From an uncultured Chthoniobacter sp. (GTDB lineage Bacteria > Verrucomicrobiota > Verrucomicrobiia > Chthoniobacterales > JACTMZ01), in the NCBI GenBank assembly GCA_964609925.1, contig CAZSUJ010000004.1, positions 9,534 to 73,533 of the forward strand: DNA of 64,000 bases. Reading direction: 5' to 3'. Positions 10,967-56,423 of the stretch are shown piece by piece. Below the pieces are notes generated by a model. The model saw only the letters and a program-made list of their open reading frames with translations. It ran no database searches and was not told the DNA's origin. The stretch's first letter is position 1. Every line of letters begins with the position of its first letter. The translations under genes and the position numbers were made by a program.

Positions 10967-10996
10967 GGCGGAAGCGCTATCGACCGCGCAAGGCGC

Positions 10997-12418: not shown

Positions 12419-15400
12419 TCAGGGCACGTTGAAGACGACCTTGTGCGTCAGCATCCGCTTCGGCGCGATGGCGAGCGGGGTCGGCCCGGTCACGGGCGAA
12501 GCACCGCGGCTGCCGTCGGGATTCAGCCGATAGAAGGAAGTGTAGCGCGTTTCCCAACCGGGATTGAAGGCCACGAACGTCGTCTCGACGCTCGTCGGGC
12601 TGAGCCGTTTGGTGAACGTGGCGGTGAGGACGATGGACGAGTTCGCATCGGCGCCGCCGGCGTCCTTGGCCCGCGCAACGTAGGTCCAGTCGAGGTCGCC
12701 GTAGTCTTTGAAGCTCGAAAGAAACGTCAGCACGCTCGTCGAAAGGATGGAAGGATTGCGCGCCGCGAACTCACCGGGGGCGGCAGTCGTGGTTACCCAA
12801 CTCGACCACAGGCGATCGATGTAGGGCTGGACGGCGGGCGTGTTCGGCGTGGTCCCGGTCATGGGGAATGGCTGGTCACCGGGGTTGTAAGGCACGCCGG
12901 CCATGGCCGCGGTCATGCTCATGGAGAGCCATTCGGCAGGCTGGAAAAGCGCGGAATTCCGGGCGTCCGTCCACTCCTGCCGCATGGTCGTTCCGGCCCA
13001 GCGGCGCATGTAGGTCGTATCACGGGCCATACCGAGGGTCCACGCGGTGGGCGGGTAGGCTTGGATGAAGCGGGAACCGGTCGGGAAGGCATAGAAGAAG
13101 TTGTTCAGCGTGACTTCGGCCTTCTTCGTCAGTGACTGCCCCGCGCTGGCCTTTCCGCCGAAAGCCTCGGGCGACTCGTAGAACGCCAGCGGACTGGCCT
13201 CGACGTAGCCCGTGTTGACCGGCCATCCGGCGTTGTTGCCGTTGTTGATCACCTGACCCGAGTCGATCGTCGTGACCGGGACCCACGAGTGCAGGTTGAG
13301 CGGCGAGTTCGCCAAGTTGTAGTTCTTGTCGAGGAAGTAGGCCTCCCCAGCCGCGAGGTTCGAGGTGAACAGGTAGATACCGAGGTCGAGCACGGCTTTG
13401 CGGTCGGTGGCCGCGCCCCAAAGGATGGCCGCGGACCACGCTTGGATTCCCTCGAACACGGAATTCTCGTTCTCGCCATTGTATTTGTCGCTCAGGGTGC
13501 CGTAAGCGCCCCAGTAGCCGAGCGGATTGGTCGTGTCCAAAACCGCCGTGGTGCTCCCCGGCATCGCCCCGCTGGCCCACGGGTGTCCGGTGAACTGGTC
13601 GAAGAACGCGAACTTCTGGTAGCTCATCCGCGCGTCCTTGTAGAGGCTGGCATCCAACGCGGCGTTGTCGGGATCGTAAGCCAGCGTCATGAGCAACTGG
13701 TCAATCGCCGTGCCCATCTGGCTTTGGGAAACCCAGAGGTCAGCCGGTTTGGTGTTGATGTTGGGCTCCCACGCGCGGTCGAAGATGCCGGCGAGGGCGG
13801 CCGAGCTGAGGTAATAGCCGTAGAAGTAGTGCTGGTCGTTCCACTGGTCGGACACGCCGAAGCCGCTCCACAGCATGCCCTTTTCCCACTTCGAAAGGCC
13901 GGTCTTTGTCGCGTTCTGCACGGGCGAGACCGTAGCCGGGTTTTGCACCGAGCTGACGACACCCCAAGCGGGCTGCGTGGCCGTCGGGTTGATCACGATG
14001 CGGCCGGTGCCCTCGTCGTATTGCGAGTAGTAGGCCATGTTCCACAGATTGGCCAAGGACTGCGGCGAGGGATTGTTCTCGGAGGGCGGGTCCAAGAAGA
14101 GGAGGCTGATGGCGCGCTGCATGCCCTGCACGGAACTCTTGAGCGCGTCGTTCATCCCGCCGAAGGGATTGTTCTGGGCGAAAACCGGGAACTCGTAGGA
14201 GTTGGCCGGGGTCTTGGCCGCGTTCAAGGCGTAGGAAGTGATGTCGACATTCGGGTAATTCGCGGCGTTGGTCGCGACTGACTGCTGGAGGTTGAAGACA
14301 TCGCCGAGGAAGTTGGCGGCGGCCCCGAACTGGTTGCCCAAACCGTAGCCGTCCGGCGCGGAAGAACCGAGGAACGCGCCGTTGAAAGGCGCGAGGCCCT
14401 GACTGGTGAGCTTCGTATATTGGGCGATGATCGAATTATAGACGACCTCATCCACACCGGTGGTCTGGGGTGCGACCTGGCCACGGTAGAAGAAGGCCGG
14501 CTGGACAATGCGGGGGAAAGGCGTAAGCGTAACGCACCAAGTCAAGGCGGGCGGACTGTCCTTTGTGGCCACGCCCTCGGTCCCGGGGATGTATCTGGCT
14601 GGCGCCGCACCCGAGGGAGGCGGATTCTTGTTGAAGCTGGCAACCGAGCCGTTGGACAGGACGGCAACGAATCTCGCGGGGAATCCTTTCGGGTTGTGCA
14701 CGGAGACGGGGTCGGGATTGCCCGAGCCCGACCAGTTGGTGGCCACCGGCACCACGCTGAGGCTCGAGTTGTAGCCGCTGCCGGGTGCGGTGACGTTGAT
14801 CGCCGTGATTCGTCCGTCCGTCACCACGACATCAGCTTGGGCGGGCGATGTGGGAAGAGGGTCTCCTTGGTTGAACCACAACTTCAAGCTGGGCAGGTAG
14901 TTGCTCCCAGAGCGCAGGATGCGCACCGCCTTGACCCCGCCGTTGGTATCGAGCACGGGCTGCAAGGCGGCGTCGAAGCCGAGGCCGCCGAAGATCGCGT
15001 ATTCCAAGGGATCGTAGGTCAGGCCCGCACCCGCATTCGAGATGATCAGGTTGGTCGCCTCGATGATACCATTGGTCGGGATGGTGAAACCAATGACGGG
15101 AGCGACCACGTTCGTGACCGCGGGATCTGAAGGGTCCTTGGCCAGAAAGCTGACCTGCGTCTCGGAATCGTAACCCGGGACCAGCGGCGAGGTAATGTCG
15201 GCCCCATTGACGGAATAGGTGGCGTAAACCCGCGCCACGGCGTTGGTGGTCGGGGAACCGCCGACGAAGACGACATCCTTCGGTGAGTTGATGATGAAAT
15301 CCGAAGGAACACCGTCGCCCAGAACCACATTGGCGACCCTGCTGCCATTGAAGAACGTCTTCAGGCCCACCGTCTTGGGCGGCACCGAGTCGTCCGTGAA

Positions 15401-18400
15401 GGAGGCGGTGAGCGTGTTGGTGGCAGCATAGTTGCCTTGGTTGATGATCGCCGCCTGGAAGGTGCCCGGAATCTTCGTCATCCTCGCGGTGGCCGTCTGG
15501 GCGTTCGTGCTGTTTGTCCCCGGTGGGATGGACACGGTCACAACCGGCGGGTTGCCATCCACCGAAGGGTAGGAGCCCGCGCTGCCGGTTCCGCCGTAGG
15601 GCGGGTCGATCTGGAAGATGTTGCCGGGCTTCACGACTTCGAACTGGGCGCCTGTGCCGGTGCCGAAGAGGCTCACGTTGATGCTGTTGGTGTTCGTGGG
15701 GGAGAAATCGAAGCCCGCCCCGCCCTCAACCACGTTGACCAGACCCGGCAGCATCGCGCCGGTGTTTCCGTCAAAATTCGGCACGATGATCGGAGGATCG
15801 ATGTTTTGGCCGCCCTGGGTGGCCGTCATGACCGACGAATAGCCACTCCCCTTGTCGAGCATGAAGATCGCGAGCACCTTGCCGCCGCCGACCTGCGCGT
15901 AGGCCTTGGCCTGCCGGCCGCCGGCCGCGGTCGGAGGATCGATGGTGACGCTGACGGTCGCCGGGGGAATGCCGTCGGGATAAGACTGACCCTTGCTGAC
16001 CACATCGACCTGCTGGACCTCCCCCCGGTAGGCATCGACGAGAGCGACGGCGGTGGCGCCGTTGCCCTTGTTCGAACTATCCACGATGGCGACCTGCGGC
16101 GCCGCCGTGATCTTGGTGTAGTTGGTGCCGACATCGGTGATGATGATGCCCGGGATGCCGGTCTGGGTAACACGGCGGGAGTAGTCCGGAGGGGGAAGGC
16201 TCGGGAGGAAATTCTGGAACGGATAGGCCACGGTGAAGGAGTCCGTGATGACGGGCTTGAGGTTCCCGCGCAGGCTCCAGTAGTTCCAACGCGAGGCGGT
16301 GGTTGGCGTGGTGCGATTGGCGTTGGGGGGTGCGCTTGCGGGGATGGGGAAATCGCGACCGTAGGAACGCAGCGGGCTCCACACGACCTCGGGGCGCGCG
16401 GCCTTGGTCAAATCGGGGCCGAGCGTGATCGGTTGGTATTGATGCGGGTTGAGAGCGATCACGGTCTGCCGTGAATCCGCGGTCATGCCGGCTGCCGCCG
16501 GACGCCCGGCCGCAGCGTAAGGATTGCGCACATCGACACGGAAAGTCGTCTGAGACTCGGTCATGTTGTCCACCGTGTAGTCGATGCTCGTCGACGTGGG
16601 GAAATTGAAGGCGTATTGGCCGAGCGACGACGCCCAGTCGCGCGCCGCCTGGTCCATGATGCGGCGGCTGTCGGCGGGGACGCCAGTGTGGTAGTAGCGC
16701 ATTGGCGGGACGTTCGCGACGACGAACCAGTTCTTCGCGCGCGGTTGGACGAACTCGAGGAAGAAGAAGGGGTTGCCCTGTGCGTCGGTGCCGTTGTTGA
16801 AGCCCGGGGCGTTGGCGGGCGGCCCGAGTTTGACCGGACGAACGGTGTCCGTGCGGTAGAAGACGGCGGTGTAGGTGTGATTGTTCTGCCCGGGCGCGTT
16901 GATCGTGTTGCCGGCCTTGTTTTTGTAGGGTCCGGGCGGGGGATTGAAGCCGCCGGGCTGCTTCGACGGGGTGTCGAAATACCATGGCGGAACCTCCTGA
17001 TACCATTGGTTGGGATTCACGTGGTTGCCGTAGAGCAGCACGAACTGCACGCCGCTGACCCCGGGAACACTCCACGGTCCGCCGGCCACCATGCCCGCGC
17101 CGGTGCCGGTATTATTGCTGATCGCGCCGTTCGTGTTGGCGCGGATGAGATTGTAGAAGGTCGTGTAGCGGGCGTTGTTGACCTCGCACCACGCGTAGGG
17201 CAGCCCCTGCCCCACCGTCATCTTGAGGTAGTTCCCCTTGCCCGGCTGGTTGAAGGGCGTGCGCTGGTAGCGGTTGGCCGCGTAGTAGTTCGTGGCCCGC
17301 AGGCTCGCCGCCTCATAGATTATGTCCGCATCGAAATCCCCGACGCGATCGACCTTTAGCGAGAAGGGAGTCTGGTCCTCGGCTGAAGCGCCACGATCCC
17401 ACACCGGGTAAGGAAACGGATCATTCGTCCCGCCGGGCCGCAGGTTCCATGCGCCGGGTTGCAGGACTTCGTCCGGACGCAGATTGCCCGGCACCACCAC
17501 CGTGGTCTCCAGGGGTCGCATGGCGAGGTAAAGCCACGCCTGATGCCACGAGACCGGCACGCTGGAGGCAGTCAGCTTGTCACCGTATTGGTAGAAGAAG
17601 GGGTTGACGGAGGAGAGGTTGACCCCGCGCACGATGGTCTTGTCCTGCCAATAGTCGGTGTTGAGCGGAAAATTCTTCATCGGCTTCGATTGGTAGCCGA
17701 AGGGACCCGGAGCCCAGTTGTAATTGACGATGAAGGGATTCAGGAAAAGCGGCTGCTGGTCCACGCGAACAGGGTTCCATGTGCCGGCGGAGCGGCCGCC
17801 GTCGGGGGCGTTGGTATTCTGCGGCCACTGGTAATTGAAATAATCCCAATCCGAGCCGGTGTAGTTGCCGTAGTCGCCCGGCGCGTGGATACCGGGCTTG
17901 ATGCCGGGCGGCGGCGTGCCATCCGCCCAGAGGAACCAGCCGAGCCAGGAACGCAGCGGCGGACGCACGCCATTGGTCGAGTAGTCCTGCAGGAGATCGG
18001 CGGTGAAGCTGCCGCGGGCGGCACCAACGGCACTCGGATACTTCGATGTGTCGGGGGTCGGATCAGTGGAACTGACGGGTGCCGCTTCCGTGCGCACGCT
18101 GACATTGGGCAACGGCGGCAAGCCAGCCCAAGCGCTGCCGACGTTCGTGCCGATATGGAACACGGTGTCCCCCGGTCCGCCGGCGGAGGAAAACCGCGGC
18201 AGCGCCCCGGCCGATGCGTCCGCCGGGAGGCGCACCTCGAGGGTGAAGAAGCGCATCGGGTTGAGGTCCACAGGATGGCCGTAAACGGTGTAGCCATCAC
18301 CTTCCTCGAGAACAACGGGCGTGCCATTGGCCGGTTCCCACTGGCCCAGAACAGCCGAACTCATCACGCGCACCTGCGCGCTGCCGACACTCTGGTCGCT

Positions 18401-20923
18401 CTGCCGGTAAACGAAGTAGGCCTGGCCCGGGGAGCGCGTCTCATCCAGAGCCGGTGCCAATGCGACAGGCGGATCGGCCTCCAACGGGCTGGTGCCGAGG
18501 ACGTATTCTAGGGCATTGGCAAAACCGTCTGCGTCGGGGTCATCGGTCGGCTGCTGCCGGTCCGACGGCACTCCTTTGGCGGCGAGCCAATCGGCAAAGG
18601 TCACGGGCCCGGAAGCACCGGCAACCCCGACCATCCAGCAGGTGCCGACAGCCGCAAGCAGGAGTGTTTTGACGGCTCCGGACTGGGCCCGGCGGCGGCG
18701 GCGAACAACGAAATAGACCGCGGCTGCTCCCATCAAGAGGAGCGCTGCAGTGCTTGGCTCGGGGACGGCCGTGGCGCCGAACACCGCCTGACCGAGATTG
18801 CCCAAGGGCACGCCCGTGCCGGCGATGTAGTTCGTGATGTTGGCCGCCGACACGCTCGAAAGCAGGCTGAACTGGGCTGGCCCGATGTAGGCTCCCAAGT
18901 CGAATCCACCCACCTCCGGCAGCCACACGAAAGCGCGCGAGCCCATGTCCGTGTTGCCGCTGTAGAGCGTGTAGAAGCCGGCCGCGAGACCGGTTTCGGT
19001 CATGAGTTGGATCTGGGTGAAAGCCTGCCCGGAGAGCGCAGTGGAGAAGACGAGTTCGTGCGTTTGGTCGAGGATCGGCTGGTAGATCCACCCGGACACG
19101 CCGAGTTGCAGCGCCCCACCGTTGTAACGCTCGGCCGATCCGGCCACGTAACCGCTTTCCGTCACCTGCAAGATGGTTGACTGCGCGTATCCGTCGTTGC
19201 GGGTGTAGGTCGGGCCGGTGAGGCCGATCTCCGCGGTCACGCCATTGGTCTTGGTCAGCCACGTCGCGTTGCCGAGAAGCACGTTCCCGCCATTGTAGCG
19301 CTCCGAGTATCCGAGGACCAAACCGGCGCCGGTCACGTAATCGGCCGAGCTGTATTGGAAGCCCGTCGCACTGGTGAAGTTCGTGCCGGTCAGCCCGACG
19401 CGGGTGGTCGCTCCAGCTGGCGTGGCGACCCAAGCAGACTGCCCTGCAGGCGAGCCGCCGGTGTAGCGCAGCGAGTAGCCGATGGCGCGTCCCGATGCAT
19501 TCATCCGATCCGCGACGCTTTGCTGGTAGCCGCTCGAAGAAGTGTGCTCCGCGTCGGTCAGGCCGATCCGGGCGCTGGAGTAAGTGCCGCCAGGGGCCTG
19601 CGCGATCCAAGCTGCATTGCCTTGGTCGGTCTCTCCGGTGAAGCGCTGGGAACCTCCGATGGCGACTCCCGACTCCGCCAGGGCGCGCACGAAGCTAAAC
19701 TCGCGACCGGATGCCGATTGAAACTCGCCGCCTGTCAGACCGACCCGCACGGTCGAGGCATTACTGATCGTCGCCACCCAGGCCGCTTGGCCCGGAGCCA
19801 CGCCGACGTAACGCTCCGAGTGCCCGGCGACCAGACCGGAGTCGGTGATCGCAACCACATCGCTCACCCGCGCACCGTTCGTCGCGGTGTAGTCCGCGCC
19901 GATGAACCCGACCCGCTGCGTCGTGGCGCCCCCCGGCGAGGCAACCCACGCCGACTTTCCTGTCGCCGCTCCGGCATTGAACCGCTCGGAGTAGCCGGCG
20001 GACTGTCCTGCGAAGTTGATGAATTGCGCCTCGCTTGCCTGATAGCCATTCGTGCCGGTGTGCTCGGCATCGTAGAATCCCACGGCGACCGTCGCGCCCG
20101 GGTTGGTGCTCCATCGCGAAACCCACGCATGCTGGCCGAGAAAATCCCCGGTTCCGGCGGCGTATCTCCAAGAAAAGCCCGCGACCTCACCCGACTCGGC
20201 GGTCTGGCCGATCGAACTGAACTGGTATCCATTGGTCCCAGTGAACCCGGCGTTGGTGAACCCGACCCGCTGGGTCACCGGCACGCCGGCCACCGGCTTC
20301 GCCACCCACGCGCTCTGGCCGAGGTCATTCGACGCTGTCGCTCCGTAACGCCGCGAGAAGCCGACGCTCACCCCGTCGGACGTGATGGATGTCGCCTCGG
20401 AAAACTGGAAGGTGCCGCCTGTGTGTTCAGTGTCGAAAAGCCCGACGCGCGTCGTGACGGCGTTGGAGGCGTTCGCCACCCAAGCCGCGCTGCCGAAATT
20501 CGTCGCAGTCCCGAGAAACCGCGCGGCACTCCCGCGAAGCCAGCCACCTTCGGTCAGTTCAACCGCGACGTTGGCTTGGGTGCCGTCGTTGCGCGTGTAG
20601 TCCGTTCCGGAAAGGCCGATCTGTCGCGTCCCGTCGCCCGACGCAAAAATCCAAGGAACCGTCCCGAGCGAGTTGGATCCCTGGAAGCGCTCGGAGGCCC
20701 CGAACACCTGCCCCGCCTCGTTCATTCCGCCCAAGATGCTGTTCTGGAAGGTGTCGCTGCGCGTGTAATTGCTGTCGAAAAAACCCAACCGCTGAAGGTT
20801 CGTCAGCCCCTGCCCTTGCGCCTGCCCGAGCATGAGAAGCGACAGAGACACGAAAGTTGCGGAACGAAAGAGAACGGTCAGGGAAACCGTCGACGTGATG
20901 GTGGAGAGCCGGCAGCAAGTCAC
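12419..20923 (-). CDS. Giant (2,834 codons) surface protein: signal + 11 HAF-like repeats + internal PEP-CTERM + second hydrophobic segment + TSP3-like module + GH81-like endo-beta-1,3-glucanase split by an inserted repeat array
   Basis: Uninterrupted minus-strand frame. GH81-type C-domain motifs are WNDQHYFYGYY (13811-13843), FDQFTGHPWASG (13568-13588 for GHPWASG) and ENENSVFEGIQAWSAAILWG (from 13474 downwards). The GH81 N-domain-like part is TVGQGLPYAWCEV (~17181-17220). The PEP-CTERM is VPEPSTAALLLMGAAAVYFVVRRRRR at 18689-18766. Confidence 0.7.
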   Translation of the reverse strand: MTCCRLSTITSTVSLTVLFRSATFVSLSLLMLGQAQGQGLTNLQRLGFFDSNYTRSDTFQNSILGGMNEAGQVFGASERFQGSNSLGTVPWIFASGDGTRQIGLSGTDYTRNDGTQANVAVELTEGGWLRGSAARFLGTATNFGSAAWVANASNAVTTRVGLFDTEHTGGTFQFSEATSITSDGVSVGFSRRYGATASNDLGQSAWVAKPVAGVPVTQRVGFTNAGFTGTNGYQFSSIGQTAESGEVAGFSWRYAAGTGDFLGQHAWVSRWSTNPGATVAVGFYDAEHTGTNGYQASEAQFINFAGQSAGYSERFNAGAATGKSAWVASPGGATTQRVGFIGADYTATNGARVSDVVAITDSGLVAGHSERYVGVAPGQAAWVATISNASTVRVGLTGGEFQSASGREFSFVRALAESGVAIGGSQRFTGETDQGNAAWIAQAPGGTYSSARIGLTDAEHTSSSGYQQSVADRMNASGRAIGYSLRYTGGSPAGQSAWVATPAGATTRVGLTGTNFTSATGFQYSSADYVTGAGLVLGYSERYNGGNVLLGNATWLTKTNGVTAEIGLTGPTYTRNDGYAQSTILQVTESGYVAGSAERYNGGALQLGVSGWIYQPILDQTHELVFSTALSGQAFTQIQLMTETGLAAGFYTLYSGNTDMGSRAFVWLPEVGGFDLGAYIGPAQFSLLSSVSAANITNYIAGTGVPLGNLGQAVFGATAVPEPSTAALLLMGAAAVYFVVRRRRRAQSGAVKTLLLAAVGTCWMVGVAGASGPVTFADWLAAKGVPSDRQQPTDDPDADGFANALEYVLGTSPLEADPPVALAPALDETRSPGQAYFVYRQSDQSVGSAQVRVMSSAVLGQWEPANGTPVVLEEGDGYTVYGHPVDLNPMRFFTLEVRLPADASAGALPRFSSAGGPGDTVFHIGTNVGSAWAGLPPLPNVSVRTEAAPVSSTDPTPDTSKYPSAVGAARGSFTADLLQDYSTNGVRPPLRSWLGWFLWADGTPPPGIKPGIHAPGDYGNYTGSDWDYFNYQWPQNTNAPDGGRSAGTWNPVRVDQQPLFLNPFIVNYNWAPGPFGYQSKPMKNFPLNTDYWQDKTIVRGVNLSSVNPFFYQYGDKLTASSVPVSWHQAWLYLAMRPLETTVVVPGNLRPDEVLQPGAWNLRPGGTNDPFPYPVWDRGASAEDQTPFSLKVDRVGDFDADIIYEAASLRATNYYAANRYQRTPFNQPGKGNYLKMTVGQGLPYAWCEVNNARYTTFYNLIRANTNGAISNNTGTGAGMVAGGPWSVPGVSGVQFVLLYGNHVNPNQWYQEVPPWYFDTPSKQPGGFNPPPGPYKNKAGNTINAPGQNNHTYTAVFYRTDTVRPVKLGPPANAPGFNNGTDAQGNPFFFLEFVQPRAKNWFVVANVPPMRYYHTGVPADSRRIMDQAARDWASSLGQYAFNFPTSTSIDYTVDNMTESQTTFRVDVRNPYAAAGRPAAAGMTADSRQTVIALNPHQYQPITLGPDLTKAARPEVVWSPLRSYGRDFPIPASAPPNANRTTPTTASRWNYWSLRGNLKPVITDSFTVAYPFQNFLPSLPPPDYSRRVTQTGIPGIIITDVGTNYTKITAAPQVAIVDSSNKGNGATAVALVDAYRGEVQQVDVVSKGQSYPDGIPPATVSVTIDPPTAAGGRQAKAYAQVGGGKVLAIFMLDKGSGYSSVMTATQGGQNIDPPIIVPNFDGNTGAMLPGLVNVVEGGAGFDFSPTNTNSINVSLFGTGTGAQFEVVKPGNIFQIDPPYGGTGSAGSYPSVDGNPPVVTVSIPPGTNSTNAQTATARMTKIPGTFQAAIINQGNYAATNTLTASFTDDSVPPKTVGLKTFFNGSRVANVVLGDGVPSDFIINSPKDVVFVGGSPTTNAVARVYATYSVNGADITSPLVPGYDSETQVSFLAKDPSDPAVTNVVAPVIGFTIPTNGIIEATNLIISNAGAGLTYDPLEYAIFGGLGFDAALQPVLDTNGGVKAVRILRSGSNYLPSLKLWFNQGDPLPTSPAQADVVVTDGRITAINVTAPGSGYNSSLSVVPVATNWSGSGNPDPVSVHNPKGFPARFVAVLSNGSVASFNKNPPPSGAAPARYIPGTEGVATKDSPPALTWCVTLTPFPRIVQPAFFYRGQVAPQTTGVDEVVYNSIIAQYTKLTSQGLAPFNGAFLGSSAPDGYGLGNQFGAAANFLGDVFNLQQSVATNAANYPNVDITSYALNAAKTPANSYEFPVFAQNNPFGGMNDALKSSVQGMQRAISLLFLDPPSENNPSPQSLANLWNMAYYSQYDEGTGRIVINPTATQPAWGVVSSVQNPATVSPVQNATKTGLSKWEKGMLWSGFGVSDQWNDQHYFYGYYLSSAALAGIFDRAWEPNINTKPADLWVSQSQMGTAIDQLLMTLAYDPDNAALDASLYKDARMSYQKFAFFDQFTGHPWASGAMPGSTTAVLDTTNPLGYWGAYGTLSDKYNGENENSVFEGIQAWSAAILWGAATDRKAVLDLGIYLFTSNLAAGEAYFLDKNYNLANSPLNLHSWVPVTTIDSGQVINNGNNAGWPVNTGYVEASPLAFYESPEAFGGKASAGQSLTKKAEVTLNNFFYAFPTGSRFIQAYPPTAWTLGMARDTTYMRRWAGTTMRQEWTDARNSALFQPAEWLSMSMTAAMAGVPYNPGDQPFPMTGTTPNTPAVQPYIDRLWSSWVTTTAAPGEFAARNPSILSTSVLTFLSSFKDYGDLDWTYVARAKDAGGADANSSIVLTATFTKRLSPTSVETTFVAFNPGWETRYTSFYRLNPDGSRGASPVTGPTPLAIAPKRMLTHKVVFNVP
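18221..18603 (-). other. Copy B of the recurrent TSP3-like + beta-rich module (internal, N-terminal to the GH81-like part)
   Basis: VTFADWLAAKG...DDPDADGFANALEYVLGTSP...LGQWEPA...MRFFTLEVRLPA. Confidence 0.6.
18689..18766 (-). other. Internal PEP-CTERM-type sorting motif (PEP + TM helix + Arg cluster)
   Basis: VPEPSTAALLLMGAAAVYFVVRRRRR. The PEP codons lie at 18755-18763 and five Arg codons at 18689-18703. No stop codon follows. Confidence 0.75.
18913..20797 (-). repeat. Eleven divergent ~57-aa protein repeats (HAF-like extracellular repeat)
   Basis: Each unit reads approximately (R)VGLTxxxxTxxxGxQxSxxxxxxxSGxVAGxSxRYxGGxxxGQSAWVAxxxGxTT. The last unit carries GSRAFVWLPEVGGFDLG, close to the HAF-repeat signature as I recall it. 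Confidence 0.6.
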
Positions 20924-21319
20924 AGCTTGGCAGGGAAAACATCGCGACCAGAGTTGTCAACACCCCTTGTGAATAACTTTGAACCGAACTCACGAGGCTC
21001 CCGGAGCCGTGATGCTGCGGAAGGCACACGATTTAGTGCCCGAGGCACGGTTGTAGCTGGTTGAATCCGACGGTGGCGACACATGTTGACATAAACAGCT
21101 CGATAGCCGGCGAATTTCTCGATTTTTTTGACCCACACACATCAGCACAAGTTGCGCGTTCATGCTTCTGAGGTATTCTTGAACAGAGCCCGACCAAAAC
21201 GGGTCTGAATCTTGTCATGTGTTGGCTCCCCCTTGGTATTTCAGCCACCAGCAGAAGTTTGCCGGGTGCAGCCCTGCATCTGTTGAGCAGGTCGCTGTTG
21301 GCATGATCGCGCTACGACT
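20924..21319. promoter_or_regulatory. Divergent intergenic/promoter region between the two giant genes
   Basis: 396 bp with no convincing ORF. It is locally less GC-rich and holds several TTGAC-type hexamers (e.g. acatgTTGACAtaaac). No promoter can be pinned down by eye. Confidence 0.3.
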
Positions 21320-24300
21320 ATGAAGCGGCGAGTTGCTCATTACGGCATTCTCGCGGCCCCGCTTCTGCTGCTGCTCATTCTCGTGGCCGCGGTGGTGTTG
21401 ATGCCTGAGGCGCGCGATCCTCGGACCGCTCGAGGTGTGGATCCAGCCAAGGAGGAGGCGGCGGGGGCGGCATCTCCCCGGATAACCGAGGGTGCGGCGC
21501 TGCAAGCCTTCGACGCATGGGTGGCGGACGGGAATTACACCGAGGAATTGGCGCAAGGGATCGAATTGGCCCGGCAGCGGCGGGCAACTCTGAAGAAGCT
21601 AATCCAAGCCAATCCCGAGGCAGCTTTGGCGCAGGCGGTGCCCTACGCCCTGCGGAAACGGTTGCCCGAACCCGTCGCGGCTTTGCTGGAAACCCCCGTG
21701 AGCACGGTGGCGAACCTTGACGTCGAGCAGGCCTGCGATGGGCCGGGGGGCCAGTCGAGAAGGCAGAGTTGGGTGATGCTGGACGACCAGCGGGTGCAAG
21801 CCTTCGCGTATGGAGACAGGGCCGAGGTGATGACCAAGGAGAAACTCTCGGTCCACGGCATCGCCATCGACGAGGTGATGGCGATGCTGGATGACCCGCT
21901 GCGGGAGCTTTCCCCAGAGGAGGTCGCCGACTCAGGTCACACAGGACGGGTGGTGCAATTCGGGAAACGGCTGTTCGCGGTGGAATCGGACACCGCGCTG
22001 GAAGCCGCCCGGCAGCAATTGCGCGGGACGGAGGAGATTTTGGGGCCGTCCGCACTACCAGCCTACCGCCAGTTGGCGGCCGGGCAGATGGACGGCCTTT
22101 ATCCGCTCGCCATGCTGGGGGGCGCGGGTGGATCGGACGGCGACTTGCCGCCCGTTGCCTTCTCTCCGTGGACTGAGGGCGGGAAGACCATGCTCTACAT
22201 CCGTGCCCGCTTCGCCGACGAAGCCCCCACCTACGAACCGGTCAGTTTCACCGACGCCCAGACCAACCAAGCCATGGCCGAGACGTTCTGGAAAGAGAAC
22301 TCCTACGGCAAGTCCACTCTCACCACGACGATCACCACGGTGGTCGTGACTTTGCCGAAGAACGGGGGCGAATACGTCAACAATTTCGGCACCCTGCTCG
22401 CCGATGCCCGGCAAGCCGCCTTGGCCGCGAACCCCGCCTGGAATCACAACAACTTCGATTTTTACACGGTTGTCACGAACTTCGCCACCAACGGCCAAGG
22501 TCAAGGCTTCAACTACTCGGGTGTCGCCCAAGTCGGCGGCCCGGGCTCCCACCTCCTGCGCACGTTCATCTCCGTGCGCACGGCCTCCCACGAATACGGA
22601 CACAACCTCGGTCTCAACCACTCAGAATACTGGCTCACCGACTCTCCCTCACCCATCGGCCGCGATTCCATACCCGGCGGATACGCCGACGACACCGCCA
22701 ACGACGAGCGTATTGAATACGGCCATAAATTCGCCGTGATGGGCGGCCAATTTGGCGGCGCCTTCGAGGAGGGACGCGCGCACTACTCCGCCGGCGACAA
22801 AAATCGTCTCGACTGGCTCGTCCAGACCAATGGCGACGTGATCAGCACAACCAACAGCGGCACCTACCGCCTCTTCCGCCACGACGTGCCCGAATCGCTG
22901 TTGGGCAGCATGAGCAACAATGTCGCCCGCGCCATCAAGATCGACCTGCCCGCCACCACGCCGCCGGGCATAAGTCCGCCTTACAAATACTGGCTCAACT
23001 ACCGCTGGCTAACCCAGGATGGCATTGCTACGACCTATCTTCGCAACGGCGTCCAAGTCGACTGGCGACGCGATGACGCCCAGGCCCGCTCGGTCATGCT
23101 CGATATGACCCCCTACTCGCGCGACAGCGGCCCCTACGGCGCGAACCCGGGTTATTCGGCTGACAATGACGACAAGGAAGACGGCGTGCTTCTCATCGGA
23201 CGCACGTTCAGCGACACCGCCGCCGGAATTCACTTCACCCCCATCGCCCGCGGCACCAACGCACCCAACGAATGGCTCGATATTGTCATCAACATCGGCA
23301 CCCAGAGCAACAACATCGCCCCGGTCATCTCCAACTTCACCGTCAGCAACACGAACCCCGCCACCAACCAGAACGTGACTTTCGCCGTCACCGCGACCGA
23401 CACCAACGGCGACACCCTCGCTTATTACTGGGACATGGGCGACAACTCGATTCAGGCGTCGTCGCTCAACCAGACCAACCGCACCAAGAGTTGGACCAAT
23501 GCCGGCTACTACACTGTGCGCGTTGAGGTCTCCGACATGAAGGGAGGCAAGACAACCACCTCCCGGCTCATCCGCGTCGGCACCCCGACCGACAACGGCA
23601 CGATCCAGGGACGCGTCACCCAGGCAGGCCGCCCCGTGGAGGGAGCCCTGGTGCGCTCGGGTGCGATCAGTGCGTGGACCCAAAGCGACGGCTCCTACGT
23701 CCTGGCCGGACTGCCCATCGGTGCGGCGACGGTCACAGCAGTCAAGGACGGCCTCACCTTCACCCCGCGATTCACCAACCCGGTGCCGGTCACCGAGTTC
23801 AACGCGTTTGGCGTTGATTTCACCGCGAACGAGCCGTGGACCGGGGGCGGCGGAACTGCGGCCAGCATCCGGCCCTATCAGCTCACGCTGCCCGTGGGCT
23901 TTGCGGCTCCGTTCGCCGCGCAGGCATTCGACGGGTCCGGGAATCCGGCGTCCTTCAACCCGACGTGGAGCGTTTCCGGCGGCGGCGTGATCAACAGCAA
24001 CGGCGTGTTTCAGGCCCAGAGCGTCGGAGGGCCTTTTGTGGTGACCGCGCAGGACGGTGCGGTCACAGCGACAGCCGCCGTCACGGTGGTTTCGGCGGCC
24101 GCCGGGCCGTCCACGAACGGCACTTGGATCAACCCTGCCGGGGGCTCGTGGTCCACCAACACCAATTGGGCGGGAGGCCCGCCGGGGATCATCGCCGGCG
24201 GTGCCAATTTGACCGCGGACTTCAACACGCTGAACATCACGTCGGATACCACCGTGAACCTGGATGGCGGCCGCATGATCGGGAACCTGGTGTTTGGAGA

Positions 24301-26173
24301 CACCACGCCAGCCTCCGCGGGCAGTTGGATCGTGGCCAATGGCACGGGCGGCTACCTGACGCTCGCCGGCACCAATCCCACCATCACGGTGAACGCGCTG
24401 GGCAGCGGCAAGTTCGCCACCATCACGGCCCAGCTCCACGGGCTCAACGGCTTCACCAAGACCGGTGCCGGCAACCTCCTTCTCAACAACAGCAGCAATG
24501 CCATCAGCGGCGCAATCGTGCTTTCCGGCGGCAACATCCAGCTCAACAGCGCCTCCCTGCGCAATGCTGCGTCGGTGGCGATCAACTCAGGCAGTTTGGT
24601 GGTGGCCACGGCGGCATCCAATGCCGTCGGCGGCACGATCTCCTTCGGCGGCGGCACGATGCAATTCAATGCCAGTCCCGCCACGGACTATTCCGCCAAT
24701 TTCAGCACCGCGACCAATCAGCCCTATCGCATCAACCTTACGTCCACCAATCAGGCCACCTTCAGCAACCGCCTCGTCAGCCAGGGCGGATCGCTCACGA
24801 AGCTGGGCTCGGGCCGGTTGATCCTCGCGGCGTCCAACACCTACACCGCCGGCACAGCTCTTTCCGGCGGCACCCTGACCTTGGCCAGCACGTCGGCCGT
24901 GGGCAGCGGTCCGGTGTCTTTCACAACCAACGCCACCCTGCAGGCAGGCCTGGCAGCGACGCTCTCCAACGCGGTCAGCGTCACCAACGGCGTCACCGGA
25001 ACCCTCGACTCCGACAGCAACAACGTCACGCTCAGCGGCGTGCTCACCGGTGCCGGCGGCCTCACGAAGACCGGCGTCGGCACCCTCAACATTTCCGGAG
25101 GCGGTGCGTCGAACACGCTCTCGGGCCCCATCACCATCAGTGCCGGCACCCTGGCCAACGATAACGTGAATCCGAACCCCGGCATCCAATCGCTGGCCAA
25201 CATGAACGGATCGATCACCGTGGCCGCCGGAGCCACCTTCAATTTCAGCCAGAGCTTCACCGCCGAGCCGCTGGACAACGCCATCACGCTCAGCGGCTCC
25301 GGCAACGGCGGATTCGGCGCCCTCAACCTCTGGCGCAACGCCACGAACACCGGCCAGATCACCCTCGCCGCGGATTCCACCATCTCCCACACCTTCAACA
25401 ACGCCACCATCGCCGGCTCCATCACCGGCACCAACCGCAACCTTACATTCACCACCACCGTCACAAACCAGCCCGGCCTGACGGTCTCCGGGCCGATCAA
25501 CCTCGGCACCGGCGGCATCACCGTCCAAGGCGTGGCCAACAGCGGCAACTTCAGCGTCCGCCTGACCGGGAGCAACAACTACACCGGCGAGACCCACGTC
25601 ATGGCCGGAACCCTCATGCTTAGCGGCAGTTCGCGCATCGACGATTCGGGCACCGTCCGGATCGCCAGCAGCGCCGTCCTTCACCTTGATTTCGCGGGCA
25701 CTGACAACATCACCACGCTCTTCCTCGACGGCGTCACCATGCCCGCCGGAACTTACGGATCCCTGTCCTCCACCGCCGCCAACAAGAGCGCCTATTTCCA
25801 AGGTGCAGGCATTTTGCAGGTCGGTGCAGCCGACAATTACGCATCCTGGGCCACACTCAACGGCGTCACCGGCGGGTCAAACGGCGATAATGACAAGGAT
25901 GGCGTGGCCAACCTCCTGGAATACGCGCTCATCGACGGAGGCGAACGGGGCGTGCTCAACGGCAACGTCATTACCTTCACCAAGCGCGGCGCTCCCTACG
26001 GCGAGGATTTGACCTACATCATTGAGGTGTCCGAGACCCTCCTGCCCGGCTCATGGGCTCCGGCGGTCACCCACGGCCCCGCTCAACTGGGCGCGCCGAT
26101 CAGCTACGACTTGGCCCCGGGTCCCGGCAATCCCAAGAAGTTCGCCCGCCTCAAGGTCGTGATGGCGCCGTAA
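21320..26173 (+). CDS. Membrane-anchored/secreted metzincin-like zinc metalloprotease fused to PKD, carboxypeptidase-regulatory-like and Big_2-like domains, a long PATR region and the C-terminal TSP3-like module
   Basis: N-terminal anchor MKRRVAHYGILAAPLLLLLILVAAVVL. HEYGHNLGLNH (HExxHxxGxxH) at 22589-22621. PKD segment NVTFAVTATDTNGDTLAYYWDMGDNS...YYTVRVEVSD. GTIQGRVTQAGRPVEGALV. PATR head GTWINPAGGSWSTNTNWAGG...IGNLVFGD, then many G-T/N-rich beta-strand repeats. The tail is ...NDKDGVANLLEYA...KKFARLKVVMAP. Confidence 0.75.
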   Translation: MKRRVAHYGILAAPLLLLLILVAAVVLMPEARDPRTARGVDPAKEEAAGAASPRITEGAALQAFDAWVADGNYTEELAQGIELARQRRATLKKLIQANPEAALAQAVPYALRKRLPEPVAALLETPVSTVANLDVEQACDGPGGQSRRQSWVMLDDQRVQAFAYGDRAEVMTKEKLSVHGIAIDEVMAMLDDPLRELSPEEVADSGHTGRVVQFGKRLFAVESDTALEAARQQLRGTEEILGPSALPAYRQLAAGQMDGLYPLAMLGGAGGSDGDLPPVAFSPWTEGGKTMLYIRARFADEAPTYEPVSFTDAQTNQAMAETFWKENSYGKSTLTTTITTVVVTLPKNGGEYVNNFGTLLADARQAALAANPAWNHNNFDFYTVVTNFATNGQGQGFNYSGVAQVGGPGSHLLRTFISVRTASHEYGHNLGLNHSEYWLTDSPSPIGRDSIPGGYADDTANDERIEYGHKFAVMGGQFGGAFEEGRAHYSAGDKNRLDWLVQTNGDVISTTNSGTYRLFRHDVPESLLGSMSNNVARAIKIDLPATTPPGISPPYKYWLNYRWLTQDGIATTYLRNGVQVDWRRDDAQARSVMLDMTPYSRDSGPYGANPGYSADNDDKEDGVLLIGRTFSDTAAGIHFTPIARGTNAPNEWLDIVINIGTQSNNIAPVISNFTVSNTNPATNQNVTFAVTATDTNGDTLAYYWDMGDNSIQASSLNQTNRTKSWTNAGYYTVRVEVSDMKGGKTTTSRLIRVGTPTDNGTIQGRVTQAGRPVEGALVRSGAISAWTQSDGSYVLAGLPIGAATVTAVKDGLTFTPRFTNPVPVTEFNAFGVDFTANEPWTGGGGTAASIRPYQLTLPVGFAAPFAAQAFDGSGNPASFNPTWSVSGGGVINSNGVFQAQSVGGPFVVTAQDGAVTATAAVTVVSAAAGPSTNGTWINPAGGSWSTNTNWAGGPPGIIAGGANLTADFNTLNITSDTTVNLDGGRMIGNLVFGDTTPASAGSWIVANGTGGYLTLAGTNPTITVNALGSGKFATITAQLHGLNGFTKTGAGNLLLNNSSNAISGAIVLSGGNIQLNSASLRNAASVAINSGSLVVATAASNAVGGTISFGGGTMQFNASPATDYSANFSTATNQPYRINLTSTNQATFSNRLVSQGGSLTKLGSGRLILAASNTYTAGTALSGGTLTLASTSAVGSGPVSFTTNATLQAGLAATLSNAVSVTNGVTGTLDSDSNNVTLSGVLTGAGGLTKTGVGTLNISGGGASNTLSGPITISAGTLANDNVNPNPGIQSLANMNGSITVAAGATFNFSQSFTAEPLDNAITLSGSGNGGFGALNLWRNATNTGQITLAADSTISHTFNNATIAGSITGTNRNLTFTTTVTNQPGLTVSGPINLGTGGITVQGVANSGNFSVRLTGSNNYTGETHVMAGTLMLSGSSRIDDSGTVRIASSAVLHLDFAGTDNITTLFLDGVTMPAGTYGSLSSTAANKSAYFQGAGILQVGAADNYASWATLNGVTGGSNGDNDKDGVANLLEYALIDGGERGVLNGNVITFTKRGAPYGEDLTYIIEVSETLLPGSWAPAVTHGPAQLGAPISYDLAPGPGNPKKFARLKVVMAP
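25827..26170 (+). other. Copy C of the recurrent TSP3-like + beta-rich module (C-terminal)
   Basis: ADNYASWATLNG...GDNDKDGVANLLEYALIDG...LLPGSWAPA...KKFARLKVVMAP-stop. Confidence 0.6.
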
Positions 26174-26196
26174 CGACGCAAGCGCCCGACCAAGAG

Positions 26197-27684: not shown

Positions 27685-27690
27685 CGGCTC

Positions 27691-53853: not shown

Positions 53854-53990
53854 GCAACGCTGCGCCTCGTAGAAGATTTTTGTAATTTTTTTCCTTGTCA
53901 CATCTGGCGATCGGCATTTTGTTATAGGGATATTCAACATTTCGTGTTGACATATATTTGGCTACGTTCAACCAAACCTCCCCAACACCC
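53854..53990 (+). promoter_or_regulatory. AT-rich leader/promoter region of the PATR/PEP-CTERM gene
   Basis: The most AT-rich stretch I saw by eye (…agatttttgtaatttttttcc…gtgTTGACAtatattt…). TTGACA at 53947-53952 directly abuts TATATT, so the promoter geometry is unclear. Confidence 0.3.
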
Positions 53991-56423
53991 ATGAAAACGA
54001 AAACTCCCGCCGTGTTCCGCATCGTTTGCCTGACGATCGGACTCCTTGCCACCTTGACTGGCGCTCACGCACAGCGCTACACGGACACCAATCCGATTGC
54101 CACGGGCGCTTGGAATACGTTGCGCTGGAGTTCCGCAACTAACGGGCCCTTCACCAGCGCGTGGGCTGCTGGGCAGAATGTATTCTTCCTCGCGAATAAC
54201 TCCTACGTGTTCGACGGCGGCATGGGCGCACCTACTAATGTGGGCAACATCACGGTTTCAAACGGGGCGACCGTGACTTTCACCAATATTTCCTCCACCT
54301 TGCAGACTGGTGGGAATGTCCGCACCTTCGAGGTCCAGAGCGGCGCGCTTTTGGACCTTAATCTTCAGGCATTCTCCACCGCCGCCGGGACCGGGTTTAT
54401 CAAGACGGGCGATGGCGTGTATGCCACCGGTAGCGGGACCAACCAAGGCGGTTTTACGCTTAACGGGGGAACGGTCATCATCCGAGGAACAACCGGGCTG
54501 GGGGGCGGGGCAACGAATGTTCTCACCCTCAGCAATGGTGTCGTGGCCGCCAACTCGTCACAAACCCTTGCCGATACCAGATTCGGAGGCGGCATCCGCA
54601 TCCGCGGCGACATCCAGTTCGGTGCCGTGTCGAACAGTTACGCGGCCAACGCCGCGCCCCTGATCGCTAGTAACGCCAACATCTCGTTTGCCAATGCCGT
54701 GAGTCTGGGTGCCACCACGCGCACGCTCACCATCGGTGGCAACGGAAACTACACGCTCTCGGGGCCCATCTCTGGAGACAGCGCCGACGTCGGTCTCATC
54801 ATCACGAACACTTCCACCGGCAAATTCGTCCTCTCCGGCACGAACACTTACACCGGAACGACAACCATCGCGGGCGGACGGGTAGACATCAGCGCACCCG
54901 CCGGCGCGAACACGTTCGCCAGCACGAACATTGTCATCAGCGGAGGAACGCTCAGCCTCACTTTCGGCGGCGCCCAGAACATCATCACCAACATTGCGAA
55001 GCTGACCATCTCCTCCGGCGGGTTCAACGGTGCCGACAGGAACCAGACCTTCGCCTCGCTCGACATGTCGGGCGGATTCATGACCAAGTCCGGATTCGGG
55101 GTGCTGGCCTTCAGCGGAGCCTCATCGGTCACCAGTGGTTCCATCACCAACACCGGCATAAACAGCGACGTGCGATTCCTCGGCGGTCTGACGCTCGGCG
55201 GAGCCTCCATTGTTTACAACAACGCCACCAACGCGGGTAATGGCATCGTCCGGGTGAGCAACAACATCACTTACTCCTCGAACGCTCTGGGTGCCGCGTT
55301 TAACAACAATGCAGCGGGCATCGGTCGGTTGGAGCTTCTTGGCACGGGTGGAACAAACACCTTCGACATCGGCGATGGTGGGGTCGCAACGGACATGGCT
55401 GTCAACTGGAACGTCACCGGCAGCGTCACTCTACGGAAGACAGGCGATGGCGCCCTTGCCATGTCCCAGTCCAACTCCTTCACGAACTTGGTCCTTGAAG
55501 GTGGCCGCATCAACGCCGACCACAACAACGCTTTGGGCAGCGGTCTTGTGACCCTCAATTCCGCGACCACGAACTCTGAACTCCGGGTCGGCGGCGGTTT
55601 GAGCATCACCAACGCTCTACAAGTATCGGACGTCGCCTCGGGGCGCACCAACACCCTCAGGAGTTTCAGCACCAACGATGTCGGGACCTGGGCTGGATCT
55701 ATTGACATCCAGGAGACCGATGCCAACAGCTTCCGCCTGCAGGCCTCAACGAACGCCTCGTTGGTTGTCTCGGGTGCCATCTCCGGCGTCGGCGGGTTCC
55801 GGAAGATAGACCAAGGCATCGTCACCCTCTCTGGTTCGACGACCAACACCTACGCCGGGAACACCGTGATCAATCTAGGCACGCTCCGACTCAACAAGAC
55901 CGCCAACACCACGGCGATCTCGGGTGATGTGAGCATCGCCACCGGTGCCACACTGCTCATCTCCGCGTCCGAGCAGGTGGCCGACACCTCGGCTGTTACG
56001 CTCTCCGGCGGCACGATCCTTCGTGACAGCGGAGTGAGCGAAGCGTTTGGCAATCTGACGGTCAGTTCAGCCTCCACACTGGATTTCGGCTCCGGAACCG
56101 AAGGGACTCTGAGCTTCGGAGCCTACTCGCCAACGGTGAAATTGACGCTGAACAACTTTTTCGGTGGCAACGTCCTGACCTTCGGCAGCGATTTAACCTC
56201 CTCGATCGCGGTCGGGACCTACAACACTACCAGCTACACGAGCGGCGACGGTCTGTTTGAAATCAACAGCATCTCCGGCGGATTCACCACCAGTTACGAC
56301 GGTGGCACCTTCACCATCACCGCCATCCCCGAGCCTTCGACGGTGCTCGCGGCACTCGGCCTCGGCGGGCTGATGCTCTGGCCGACGGTCCGCCGTCTGC
56401 GCGGCAAACGGCACCAAGGTTGA
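53991..56423 (+). CDS. PATR surface protein with C-terminal PEP-CTERM anchor
   Basis: The ATG at 53991 gives the signal MKTKTPAVFRIVCLTIGLLATLTGAHA. PATR repeats (FIKTGDGVY, LRKTGDGALAM, FRKIDQGIVTLSG...). The terminal sequence is ITAIPEPSTVLAALGLGGLMLWPTVRRLRGKRHQG-stop. Confidence 0.8.
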   Translation: MKTKTPAVFRIVCLTIGLLATLTGAHAQRYTDTNPIATGAWNTLRWSSATNGPFTSAWAAGQNVFFLANNSYVFDGGMGAPTNVGNITVSNGATVTFTNISSTLQTGGNVRTFEVQSGALLDLNLQAFSTAAGTGFIKTGDGVYATGSGTNQGGFTLNGGTVIIRGTTGLGGGATNVLTLSNGVVAANSSQTLADTRFGGGIRIRGDIQFGAVSNSYAANAAPLIASNANISFANAVSLGATTRTLTIGGNGNYTLSGPISGDSADVGLIITNTSTGKFVLSGTNTYTGTTTIAGGRVDISAPAGANTFASTNIVISGGTLSLTFGGAQNIITNIAKLTISSGGFNGADRNQTFASLDMSGGFMTKSGFGVLAFSGASSVTSGSITNTGINSDVRFLGGLTLGGASIVYNNATNAGNGIVRVSNNITYSSNALGAAFNNNAAGIGRLELLGTGGTNTFDIGDGGVATDMAVNWNVTGSVTLRKTGDGALAMSQSNSFTNLVLEGGRINADHNNALGSGLVTLNSATTNSELRVGGGLSITNALQVSDVASGRTNTLRSFSTNDVGTWAGSIDIQETDANSFRLQASTNASLVVSGAISGVGGFRKIDQGIVTLSGSTTNTYAGNTVINLGTLRLNKTANTTAISGDVSIATGATLLISASEQVADTSAVTLSGGTILRDSGVSEAFGNLTVSSASTLDFGSGTEGTLSFGAYSPTVKLTLNNFFGGNVLTFGSDLTSSIAVGTYNTTSYTSGDGLFEINSISGGFTTSYDGGTFTITAIPEPSTVLAALGLGGLMLWPTVRRLRGKRHQG

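Follow-up and report, generated by a model that had tools for sequence, protein, structure and literature searches.

A conserved in-frame fusion in Chthoniobacterales with an internal PEP-CTERM signal followed by a signal-peptide-like helix: a candidate secreted polyprotein

The window analyzed here, a 64-kb stretch (64,000 nucleotides, nt) of contig CAZSUJ010000004.1 from an uncultured Chthoniobacter sp., contains on its minus strand a single open reading frame (ORF) that joins two exported proteins in frame. The upstream part (module A) is a repeat protein that ends in a complete PEP-CTERM sorting signal, and the downstream part (module B) is a giant, GH81-like secreted protein that begins with a signal-peptide-like helix directly behind this signal. 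The fusion is genuine and maintained, of which we are practically certain; it is old, and both halves are kept by selection. We propose that it is probably a secreted polyprotein, i.e., a conserved fusion of two formerly separate, coupled genes, whose product would be split into two exported proteins. It is very likely that ribosomes produce module B by continuing through the junction, and, as far as the sequence allows a prediction, fairly probable that both proposed cleavages, by signal peptidase I and by an exosortase, take place. Coordinates of all features are collected in Table 1.

Counted from GTG 20923, the ORF (12419..20923, minus strand) comprises 2,834 codons within a stop-to-stop span of 12419-20956, and translation with table 11 revealed no internal stop codon of any type. 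An earlier note, made from the letters of this DNA alone, had already placed a PEP-CTERM signal in the middle of this frame; its coordinates for the ORF, the PEP motif, the arginines, the linker and the second helix, as well as the GTC codon, were all exact on re-reading. The tripartite PEP-CTERM design is present, comprising the residues V-P-E-P (18766-18755, with PEP at 18763-18755), the helix STAALLLMGAAAVYFVV, and RRRRR, which is encoded by four CGC codons and one CGG codon at 18703-18689. Profile hidden Markov models, whose failure on this segment the earlier note had named as evidence against its reading, scored above cut-off on residues 719/720-745 in the context of the whole ORF (TIGR02595: 23.7 bits, cut-off 16; PF07589: 22.3 bits, cut-off 20.7). 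The isolated segment reached 31.1 and 31.5 bits, respectively, and the PEP-CTERM segments of the other five fused lineages described below scored 23.1-29.5 bits, i.e., above cut-off in every lineage. The location is not the canonical one: PEP-CTERM signals are expected within about 10 residues of the C-terminus, and here 2,089 residues lie beyond the arginine cluster.

A hydrophobicity scan (15-residue window, mean Kyte-Doolittle value ≥ 1.7) identified only two strongly hydrophobic segments in all 2,834 residues, namely 724-741 and 753-769, which flank the arginine cluster with its 5-6 positive charges. The PEP-CTERM helix is separated from the second helix, VKTLLLAAVGTCWMVGVAGA, by this cluster and the five-residue linker AQSGA. 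GTC is the first codon of the second helix, and 2,064 residues lie downstream of its predicted cleavage site. By inspection, the second helix fits the design of a Sec type I signal peptide, with RRRRR..K as the n-region, TLLLAAVGTCWMVGV as the h-region, and AGA↓S as the c-region. Small residues occupy -3 and -1 in each of the six fused versions (AGA, ARA, ARA, AQA, AQA, and VRA), and G or P is found at -4 to -6 in 6/6 lineages, despite the divergent helix sequence. A signal peptidase I site is predicted at AGA↓SGP, between nucleotides 18614 and 18613. Furthermore, the arginine cluster, AQSGA and K752 form a predicted cytoplasmic loop that would double as the n-region of the next signal. A twin-arginine translocation (Tat) signal was also considered for RRRRR and the following helix but is not favoured, as the n-regions of stand-alone B homologues are ordinary Sec-type regions with single K/R residues.

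Between PEP and the AxA motif of the fused lineages, neither a start codon nor a Shine-Dalgarno (SD)-like sequence is conserved in frame. Since module B is nevertheless under strong purifying selection (see below), we conclude that it is very likely translated through the junction. The sole conserved in-frame potential start near the junction lies behind the predicted cleavage site, where the Val codon of the motif P-V-x-F/Y (18602-18604 in the window) is GTG in the window, L002, L003, and L008, i.e., in all four DNAs examined. A module B begun at this codon would be without a signal peptide, and the GTG is probably just the preferred Val codon of a GC-rich genome.

To what extent is this arrangement conserved? 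With the whole ORF as the query, four full-length proteins (2,754-2,825 amino acids, aa) were retrieved, all with the same internal arrangement: P0001 (NCBI), which is 100% identical and stems from the window's own genome, P0002 (JGI, 86% identical over the whole ORF), and P0003 and P0004 (both Logan, 79% and 71%). A scan of species-representative genomes added L007 and L008, two Chthoniobacterales metagenome-assembled genomes (MAGs; assemblies JACSRX01 and JBGSSV01) with 73% and 82% identity in the best segment, which lies in the B half. In total, six distinct single-ORF versions are known from independent assemblies (the window, equal to P0001; P0002; P0003 at locus L002; P0004 at locus L003; L007; and L008), which bears out the in-frame fusion that was one of three explanations offered in the earlier note. 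All fused lineages belong to Chthoniobacterales where they are named, and MAGs of this same order, instead of the supposed Opitutaceae, are the closest genomes with a name. The junction sequence is different in each lineage. A metagenome scan with a 600-aa segment spanning the junction gave 117 pattern matches, 0 of which were confirmed.

When the codons of the window, L002, and L003 are aligned, the junction proves strongly diverged and carries several indels of 1-3 codons, all of them in frame, with zero stops or frameshifts; over the entire ~8.5 kb, none of the six fused lineages has a stop or a frameshift. Synonymous divergence (dS, Nei-Gojobori, as for all rates given here) between fused lineages is ~1.0-1.1, and the ratio of nonsynonymous to synonymous divergence (omega) is 0.14-0.22 in module A and 0.12-0.18 in module B past its first 100 residues. 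Because dS is ~1, omega is low in both halves, all indels are in frame, and six lineages share the arrangement, the fusion must be old. The other two explanations of the earlier note, a very recent loss of stop and spacer and an assembly or base-calling error, are thereby rejected.

The N-terminus of the fused protein deserves a comment. Orthologues P0003 and P0004 have clear signal peptides that end just ahead of the conserved QGLxNLxRLGFF. By inspection, the signal-like N-terminus of the window ORF depends on the start at GTG 20923, which yields a sequence ending in ...LLMLGQAQG↓QGL that matches the signal peptides of P0003 and P0004. The deposited start of P0001 at NCBI is ATG 20833 (MLGQAQGQGL...), which would delete the hydrophobic N-terminus; judging from the orthologues, this start was probably called too far downstream.

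Searched separately, each half proved to be a family of its own. The A half retrieved 89 proteins of about 400-1,100 aa, most of them 600-900 aa; none of these 89 homologues has an internal PEP-CTERM signal, the tag being terminal wherever the scan detects one. Named homologues include PEP-CTERM proteins of Lacunisphaera and Terrimicrobium as well as HAF/DUF3466 repeat proteins, some with PF11949 (DUF3466). The B half retrieved 46 stand-alone proteins of 1,710-3,257 aa, mostly about 2,050-2,120 aa, from Puniceicoccus, Ruficoccus, Cerasicoccus, and many MAGs of Verrucomicrobiota, the distant members being cyanobacterial; no PEP-CTERM signal occurs among these 46. All but a handful begin with a classical N-terminal signal peptide that leads directly into xY/F-x-x-W-A...NPDGD..NALEY.FGTDP, and alignment A1 shows no variation at W34, D52, D54, or E61 of B. 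Because the signal peptides of stand-alone B precede the same module as the second helix of the fusion, this helix is, by position, the internal homologue of B's own signal peptide, in line with the view of the earlier note that it once belonged to an independent protein.

Such an N-terminus is missing from a few B homologues whose calls are truncated or mis-started and from the cyanobacterial forms. The latter (L024 and L027; P0131-P0138; Leptolyngbya sp. JSC-1, Elainella saxicola, and others) have neither the signal peptide nor the DPDGD...NALEY module, and several of them bear 800-1,100 additional residues. Weaker relatives of B with 26-31% identity were seen in MAGs of Chlamydiota, Dependentiae, and Acidobacteriota. 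Curated annotation of the B family is limited to a partial GH81 domain. The GH81-like enzyme suspected in the earlier note stood in part: PF17652, the GH81 C-terminal domain, scored 30.8 bits (cut-off 25.6), covering only profile positions 104-177 of 349, and GH81 structures were matched (PDB 6fop, E = 1e-9 over ~65 residues; 5upi/BH0236, E = 2e-7). With a match this partial, the C-terminal region of module B is best called GH81-like, short of established membership in GH81.

In three relatives with about 40-49% identity (L004, L005, and L006), A and B are adjacent separate genes, so that the comparison of orthologous loci proposed in the earlier note yields a single ORF in six lineages and two coupled genes in three. 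The stop of A and the start of B overlap as ATGA in L004 and L005 and are 4 nt apart in L006, and no SD sequence is evident ahead of B in these three loci; translational coupling of A and B is therefore indicated. According to tblastn searches of all fetched loci, A lies directly upstream of B solely in the three split and the fused loci, whereas in ~20 other genomes there is no A within 10 kb of B; in L026, an unrelated PEP-CTERM gene ends ~260 nt upstream of B. Because A precedes B only in the split and fused loci, the most parsimonious order of events would be B alone, then a coupled A-B operon, then in-frame fusion in one Chthoniobacterales clade. In the last step, a small deletion would have taken out the stop of A together with the Met of B and joined the two frames.

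Before fusion, the product of gene A would have been a Sec-exported repeat protein with a terminal PEP-CTERM signal, and that of gene B a ~2,060-aa GH81-like secreted protein with its own signal peptide. For the fused product, we infer the topology and both cleavages from the layout of the junction. The N-terminal signal peptide would begin Sec export of module A, and the PEP-CTERM helix would then act as a stop-transfer segment (N-out, C-in), so that RRRRR is held in the cytoplasm, where it would serve at once as the basic tail of the PEP-CTERM signal and as the n-region of the next signal. The second helix would re-insert (N-in, C-out), and translocation of module B would resume. Signal peptidase I would cut after AGA (residue 770) and free B into the periplasm, an exosortase would cut A at the PEP motif, and a two-helix hairpin of ~50 residues would stay behind in the membrane as a waste product. 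The outcome would equal that of the two-gene operon, with both proteins in a fixed 1:1 yield. Five Arg and one Lys in the loop agree with the positive-inside rule. Furthermore, a six-frame scan of the window found only one other PEP-CTERM-like motif, which belongs to the canonical PEP-CTERM ORF 53928-56423 and suggests that the sorting system is in use in this genome. By analogy, processing of a mid-protein signal by exosortase and signal peptidase is backed by the ArtA substrate HVO_0405 and by mid-protein sorting tags, both of which are described below.

Several points weigh against this proposal. Pfam searches found no exosortase among 28 ORFs of the window. To our knowledge, no exosortase has been demonstrated to accept a PEP-CTERM signal that precedes a second membrane pass. 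The cytoplasmic loop of 12 residues is short, yet compatible with a helical hairpin, and the signal peptidase site is a prediction from the -3/-1 rule and positional homology. The junction evolves in the manner of signal and membrane segments: its omega of 0.31-0.53 is relaxed compared with the domains and close to the range of the N-terminal signal peptide (0.28-0.76), which is expected for such segments and no proof of function. Finally, Haft et al. (2006) reported that PEP-CTERM signals lie at a median of 3 residues from the C-terminus, with 87% of them within ten, and that the 'very few' internal signals 'may represent non-functional examples'.

How do other explanations compare? If the fusion is translated and its junction is processed only partly or never, the product would be an inner-membrane protein in which a two-helix hairpin anchors two large periplasmic domains; in variants with partial processing, the exosortase alone would cut and B would stay tethered by an uncleaved signal-anchor, or signal peptidase alone would cut and the PEP-CTERM segment would be defunct as a sorting signal. 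The predicted nature of both cleavages would accommodate such a protein, as would the second hydrophobic stretch of about 15-18 residues in the window, which is at the upper end for cleavable signal peptides, and the view of Haft et al. (2006) that internal signals are possibly non-functional. We consider it unlikely, however, since small residues at -3/-1 and G/P at -4 to -6 were retained in 6/6 lineages although the helix diverged, since the same position is occupied by an ordinary cleavable signal peptide in most stand-alone B proteins, since PEP motif, helix, and basic cluster together score above the profile cut-off in every lineage, and since ArtA does process a centrally located signal (PMC7157517). 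Quite improbable, in our view, is a third scenario, in which B would stem chiefly from internal translation initiation near the junction and the read-through product would be a minor by-product. In-frame ATG, GTG, and TTG codons are indeed scattered near the junction, and some would give a plausible signal peptide, e.g., the TTG in RRRLRR (L002 and L008), the TTG ahead of AVRKFRR (L003), and the ATG codons of M734 and M767 (window). These candidates are, however, neither conserved in position nor preceded by an SD-like sequence, and the window has no start codon between the arginine cluster and the h-region, the nearest ones giving an odd n-region or a truncated helix. Moreover, A has no stop, so each ribosome that translates A goes on into B, and in the split relatives B already depends on coupling (ATGA overlap, no SD).

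A decaying locus, in which the loss of the stop would be the first step of pseudogenisation, might account for the faster evolution of the junction relative to the domains, but is highly improbable for a gene that has kept about 8.5 kb free of stops and frameshifts in six lineages, at a dS of ~1 and with omega of 0.12-0.22 in both halves. Likewise, an artefact of assembly, base-calling, or gene-calling (a missed stop, a chimeric contig, or a wrong genetic code) draws on nothing but the prior rarity of internal PEP-CTERM signals. Its probability is close to negligible: the fusion occurs in independent NCBI, JGI, and Logan assemblies with a different junction sequence in each, table 11 translation yields no stop codon whatsoever, and the DNA bears out multi-module proteins of the same design, of which one is encoded on a contig of 5.05 Mb.

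Further proteins with such junctions were found with a profile of 53 positions, which was derived from seven junctions and run against 1.84 billion representative proteins. The profile matched 832 representative proteins at E ≤ 1e-3, 18 of them at E ≤ 1e-10. Among the best 149 of the 832, an internal PEP-CTERM signal is present in 143, a second hydrophobic helix follows it in 132, and internal and terminal PEP-CTERM signals occur together in 131; the number of full junctions per ORF in this set ranges from 1 to 8. The junction architecture is found in Verrucomicrobiota, Planctomycetota, and other phyla, amounting to at least 832 clusters at 50% identity. Ten modules are chained within a single 2,500-aa ORF in P0141, i.e., NCBI MCA9247495.1, whose sole annotation is 'PEP-CTERM sorting domain-containing protein [Planctomycetales bacterium]'. 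In the junctions inspected, the basic cluster leads straight into the next h-region with a median gap of 7 residues, and there is no fixed position at which a Met, a stop, or a recoded residue is found again. Local alignment of internal helices to the N-terminal signal peptide of the same protein, with shuffled controls, showed for at least 13 of the 84 testable proteins that the two are recognisably homologous and stay in register across the cleavage site (e.g., SSAFA↓QVEY and NASA↓VxIETVVVGN). TIGR02595 counted two to four separate stretches in 7/10 ORFs scanned. A heuristic for cleavage sites, which takes the first small -3/-1 pair past the h-region, fired on 238/238 junctions and was set aside as non-discriminating.

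Individual loci illustrate this architecture. P0005 (L001 4709-12307, 2,532 aa), a distant match verified at the DNA level, combines a terminal signal with three internal PEP-CTERM junctions built on this design; its modules are ordered DUF7453, HAF-like repeats, HAF-like repeats, and DUF7453, and each junction consists of PEP-CTERM, RRRR, and a signal-like helix. As two of these junctions are near-duplicates of one another, whole modules including their junctions appear to have been tandemly duplicated. The four-module P0142 lies on a 5.05-Mb contig (L043) without internal stops and beside a second multi-module gene: P0142 (3001-6117) and P0144 (from 6808 onward) are adjacent, have four modules each, and are surrounded by planctomycete-type neighbours (DUF1559/SBP_bac_10). 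P0146 consists of three FGE-sulfatase modules, each with a PEP-CTERM signal, and is identical on three contigs from different samples; at L044/L045 (10001-13048) it lies just upstream of several single-module DUF3466/PEP-CTERM genes and beside genes for a resolvase and for a DDE transposase, so that a single locus holds fused as well as unfused modules. P0148 was found in identical form on six contigs from four sources. A wrong genetic code or read-through was rejected as an explanation for the multi-module ORFs, the DNA of L043 and L001 being without any stop codon and the sequences inspected without a Met, Trp, or Gly at a fixed position. We lean slightly towards the conclusion that these ORFs form a widespread class of bacterial secreted polyproteins, in which chained modules of signal peptide, domain, and PEP-CTERM signal share their arginine clusters and would be cut by signal peptidase I and exosortase at each hairpin into 2-10 individual proteins, secreted or at the surface.

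Compared with known systems, the window protein has the same tripartite signal above cut-off as canonical PEP-CTERM/exosortase (EpsH, Xrt) substrates, a probable N-terminal signal peptide, and A-type homologues that are ordinary PEP-CTERM proteins; it differs from them in that 2,089 residues separate its signal from the C-terminus, among them a second membrane pass and a further exported protein. A precedent for a central signal is HVO_0405 of Haloferax volcanii, a fusion protein whose central tripartite signal was cut experimentally by the exosortase homologue ArtA (PMC7157517). As described there, HVO_0405 is an archaeal Tat substrate of the PGF-CTERM type, strain-specific, and unstable when uncleaved, in contrast to the window fusion, which is conserved across deep divergence. 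According to a second source (PMC11980579), C-terminal sorting tags operate when located mid-protein, and MXAN_5598 of Myxococcus xanthus contains an internal MYXO-CTERM; the authors suggest that this protein arose when two genes, the counterparts of the overlapping pair TraA/TraB, were fused. The likeness extends to the upstream adhesin with its sorting tag and to a downstream part that also has to exit the cytoplasm (PMC11980579). In contrast to the window fusion, MXAN_5598 involves MYXO-CTERM and a myxosortase (a CAAX-type protease) and is one case, discussed without a conservation analysis, and the passages on it describe neither an internal signal peptide nor a polyprotein model (PMC11980579).

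The name of the NCBIfam model NF033207, 'midcut-by-XrtH protein', implies an exosortase substrate that is cut mid-protein. In three fused junctions, this model gives a weak alignment that spans both helices (profile positions 32-89; 16.8-20.3 bits, cut-off 45), and it reaches 19.8 bits on P0142 against the same cut-off. The window ORF falls outside this family, as it gave no match at E ≤ 1. NF033207 also differs in being one small family tied to XrtH, and no paper about it was found in the literature search. In Bradyrhizobium japonicum, cytochrome b and cytochrome c1 are said, in work by Thony-Meyer and colleagues from 1991, to arise from the single-ORF precursor FbcH, which is split at an internal signal-peptide-like segment past a membrane-spanning region. 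In that case, the upstream partner is a polytopic membrane protein, and there is no sorting tag, second protease, or chain of several modules. Structural polyproteins of viruses such as flaviviruses and alphaviruses also alternate stop-transfer segments and internal signals and are cut on the luminal side by host signal peptidase into separate ectodomains. They are, however, viral proteins of the eukaryotic endoplasmic reticulum, with no evolutionary relationship to the fusion and no exosortase step. No description of a conserved PEP-CTERM/signal-peptide junction design, of a shared basic cluster, or of multi-module chains was found in the searchable literature, an earlier remark elsewhere not being excluded. 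While the components are all known, their arrangement, conservation, and breadth appear to be new.

Regarding the genomic surroundings, the window is a polysaccharide-utilisation region (92-3302, 26026-33948, and 57140-59165) with six full sulfatase genes and a 130-aa sulfatase fragment (57140-57532). It also contains genes of the GH42, GH116-like, Glyco_hydro_cc/ricin, and raffinose-synthase-like types, a sugar transporter of the ABC family, and several giant PATR/beta-helix proteins. Directly upstream of the fused gene, the P0002 contig encodes an ABC-2 transporter pair, a polysaccharide export protein of the Wza type (Poly_export/SLBB), and an AAA_31 chain-length/tyrosine-kinase-like protein. 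By their predicted functions, these genes are an exopolysaccharide export cluster, a context classically tied to PEP-CTERM systems. In the window, this place is taken by a divergent PKD/PATR protein (21287-26173). Downstream, the split loci share a third ORF 3' of B with ~250-300 aa and no Pfam hit (L004 9710-10618, L005 12561-13466, and L006 8976-9731). In L005, a 4-bp overlap of this ORF with the stop of B points to a coupled operon of three genes at that locus. In the window (10997-12355, minus strand) and on the P0002 contig, the gene after B encodes an OprB-family porin instead.

Table 1. Features of the fused ORF and the canonical PEP-CTERM gene in the window, and coordinates of the split loci in their own sequences.
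Feature	Coordinates	Strand	Basis or remark
Whole fused A-B ORF	12419..20923	-	stop codon at 12419-12421; full-length homologues 2,754-2,825 aa, 71-86% identity
Probable N-terminal Sec signal peptide, residues 1-37 (...LFRSATFVSLSLLMLGQAQG↓QGL)	20813..20923	-	read from GTG 20923; orthologue comparison
Module A, repeat-rich extracellular domain, HAF/DUF3466 type, residues 38-719	18767..20812	-	89 stand-alone homologues
Internal PEP-CTERM signal, residues 720-745: VPEP, helix STAALLLMGAAAVYFVV, RRRRR	18689..18766	-	TIGR02595, PF07589
Linker AQSGA	18674..18688	-	sequence and length vary by lineage, reading frame always kept
Second hydrophobic helix VKTLLLAAVGTCWMVGVAGA, residues 751-770	18614..18673	-	position equals signal peptide of stand-alone/split B
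Conserved N-terminal module of mature B (VTFADWLAAKG...DDPDADGFANALEYVLGTSP), TSP3-type calcium-binding-like	18485..18604	-	directly after signal peptide in most stand-alone B
Module B, predicted mature form, residues 771-2834, giant secreted protein, GH81-like C-terminal region	12422..18613	-	46 stand-alone homologues
GH81 C-terminal domain match, residues 2355-2454	13562..13861	-	PF17652; PDB 6fop, 5upi
Canonical PEP-CTERM protein, PATR repeats, PEP at 56328-56336	53928..56423	+	stop 31 codons past PEP start
Split locus L004	A 800-3037, B 3034-9705		ATGA stop/start overlap
Split locus L005	A 3731-6004, B 6001-12564		ATGA stop/start overlap
Split locus L006	A 201-2429, B 2434-8835		4-nt gap

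Since 2006, internal PEP-CTERM signals have been assumed to be rare and probably dead. This assumption is overturned by one such signal that is conserved at a dS of ~1, and by hundreds of clusters that chain up to ten. Annotation rules that expect a C-terminal tag and one product per ORF mislabel such genes, as seen from the NCBI label 'PEP-CTERM sorting domain-containing protein', and predictions of exoproteomes would overlook the internal modules. Exosortase biochemistry is largely uncharacterised, and the natural fusions are ready reporters for exosortase cleavage; it was the size shift upon cutting that made HVO_0405 the standard ArtA assay. The junction itself is a compact natural 'stop-transfer / restart' cassette of ~50 residues with potential use in multi-cargo secretion. 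If the hairpin model is true, bacteria would have a polyprotein route that yields several exported proteins per translation event, with fixed stoichiometry and co-localised export, and that needs only the housekeeping signal peptidase and an exosortase, a logic so far tied to viruses and a few respiratory-chain oddities. If the polyprotein class is true as well, it would be a bacterial counterpart of viral polyprotein processing.

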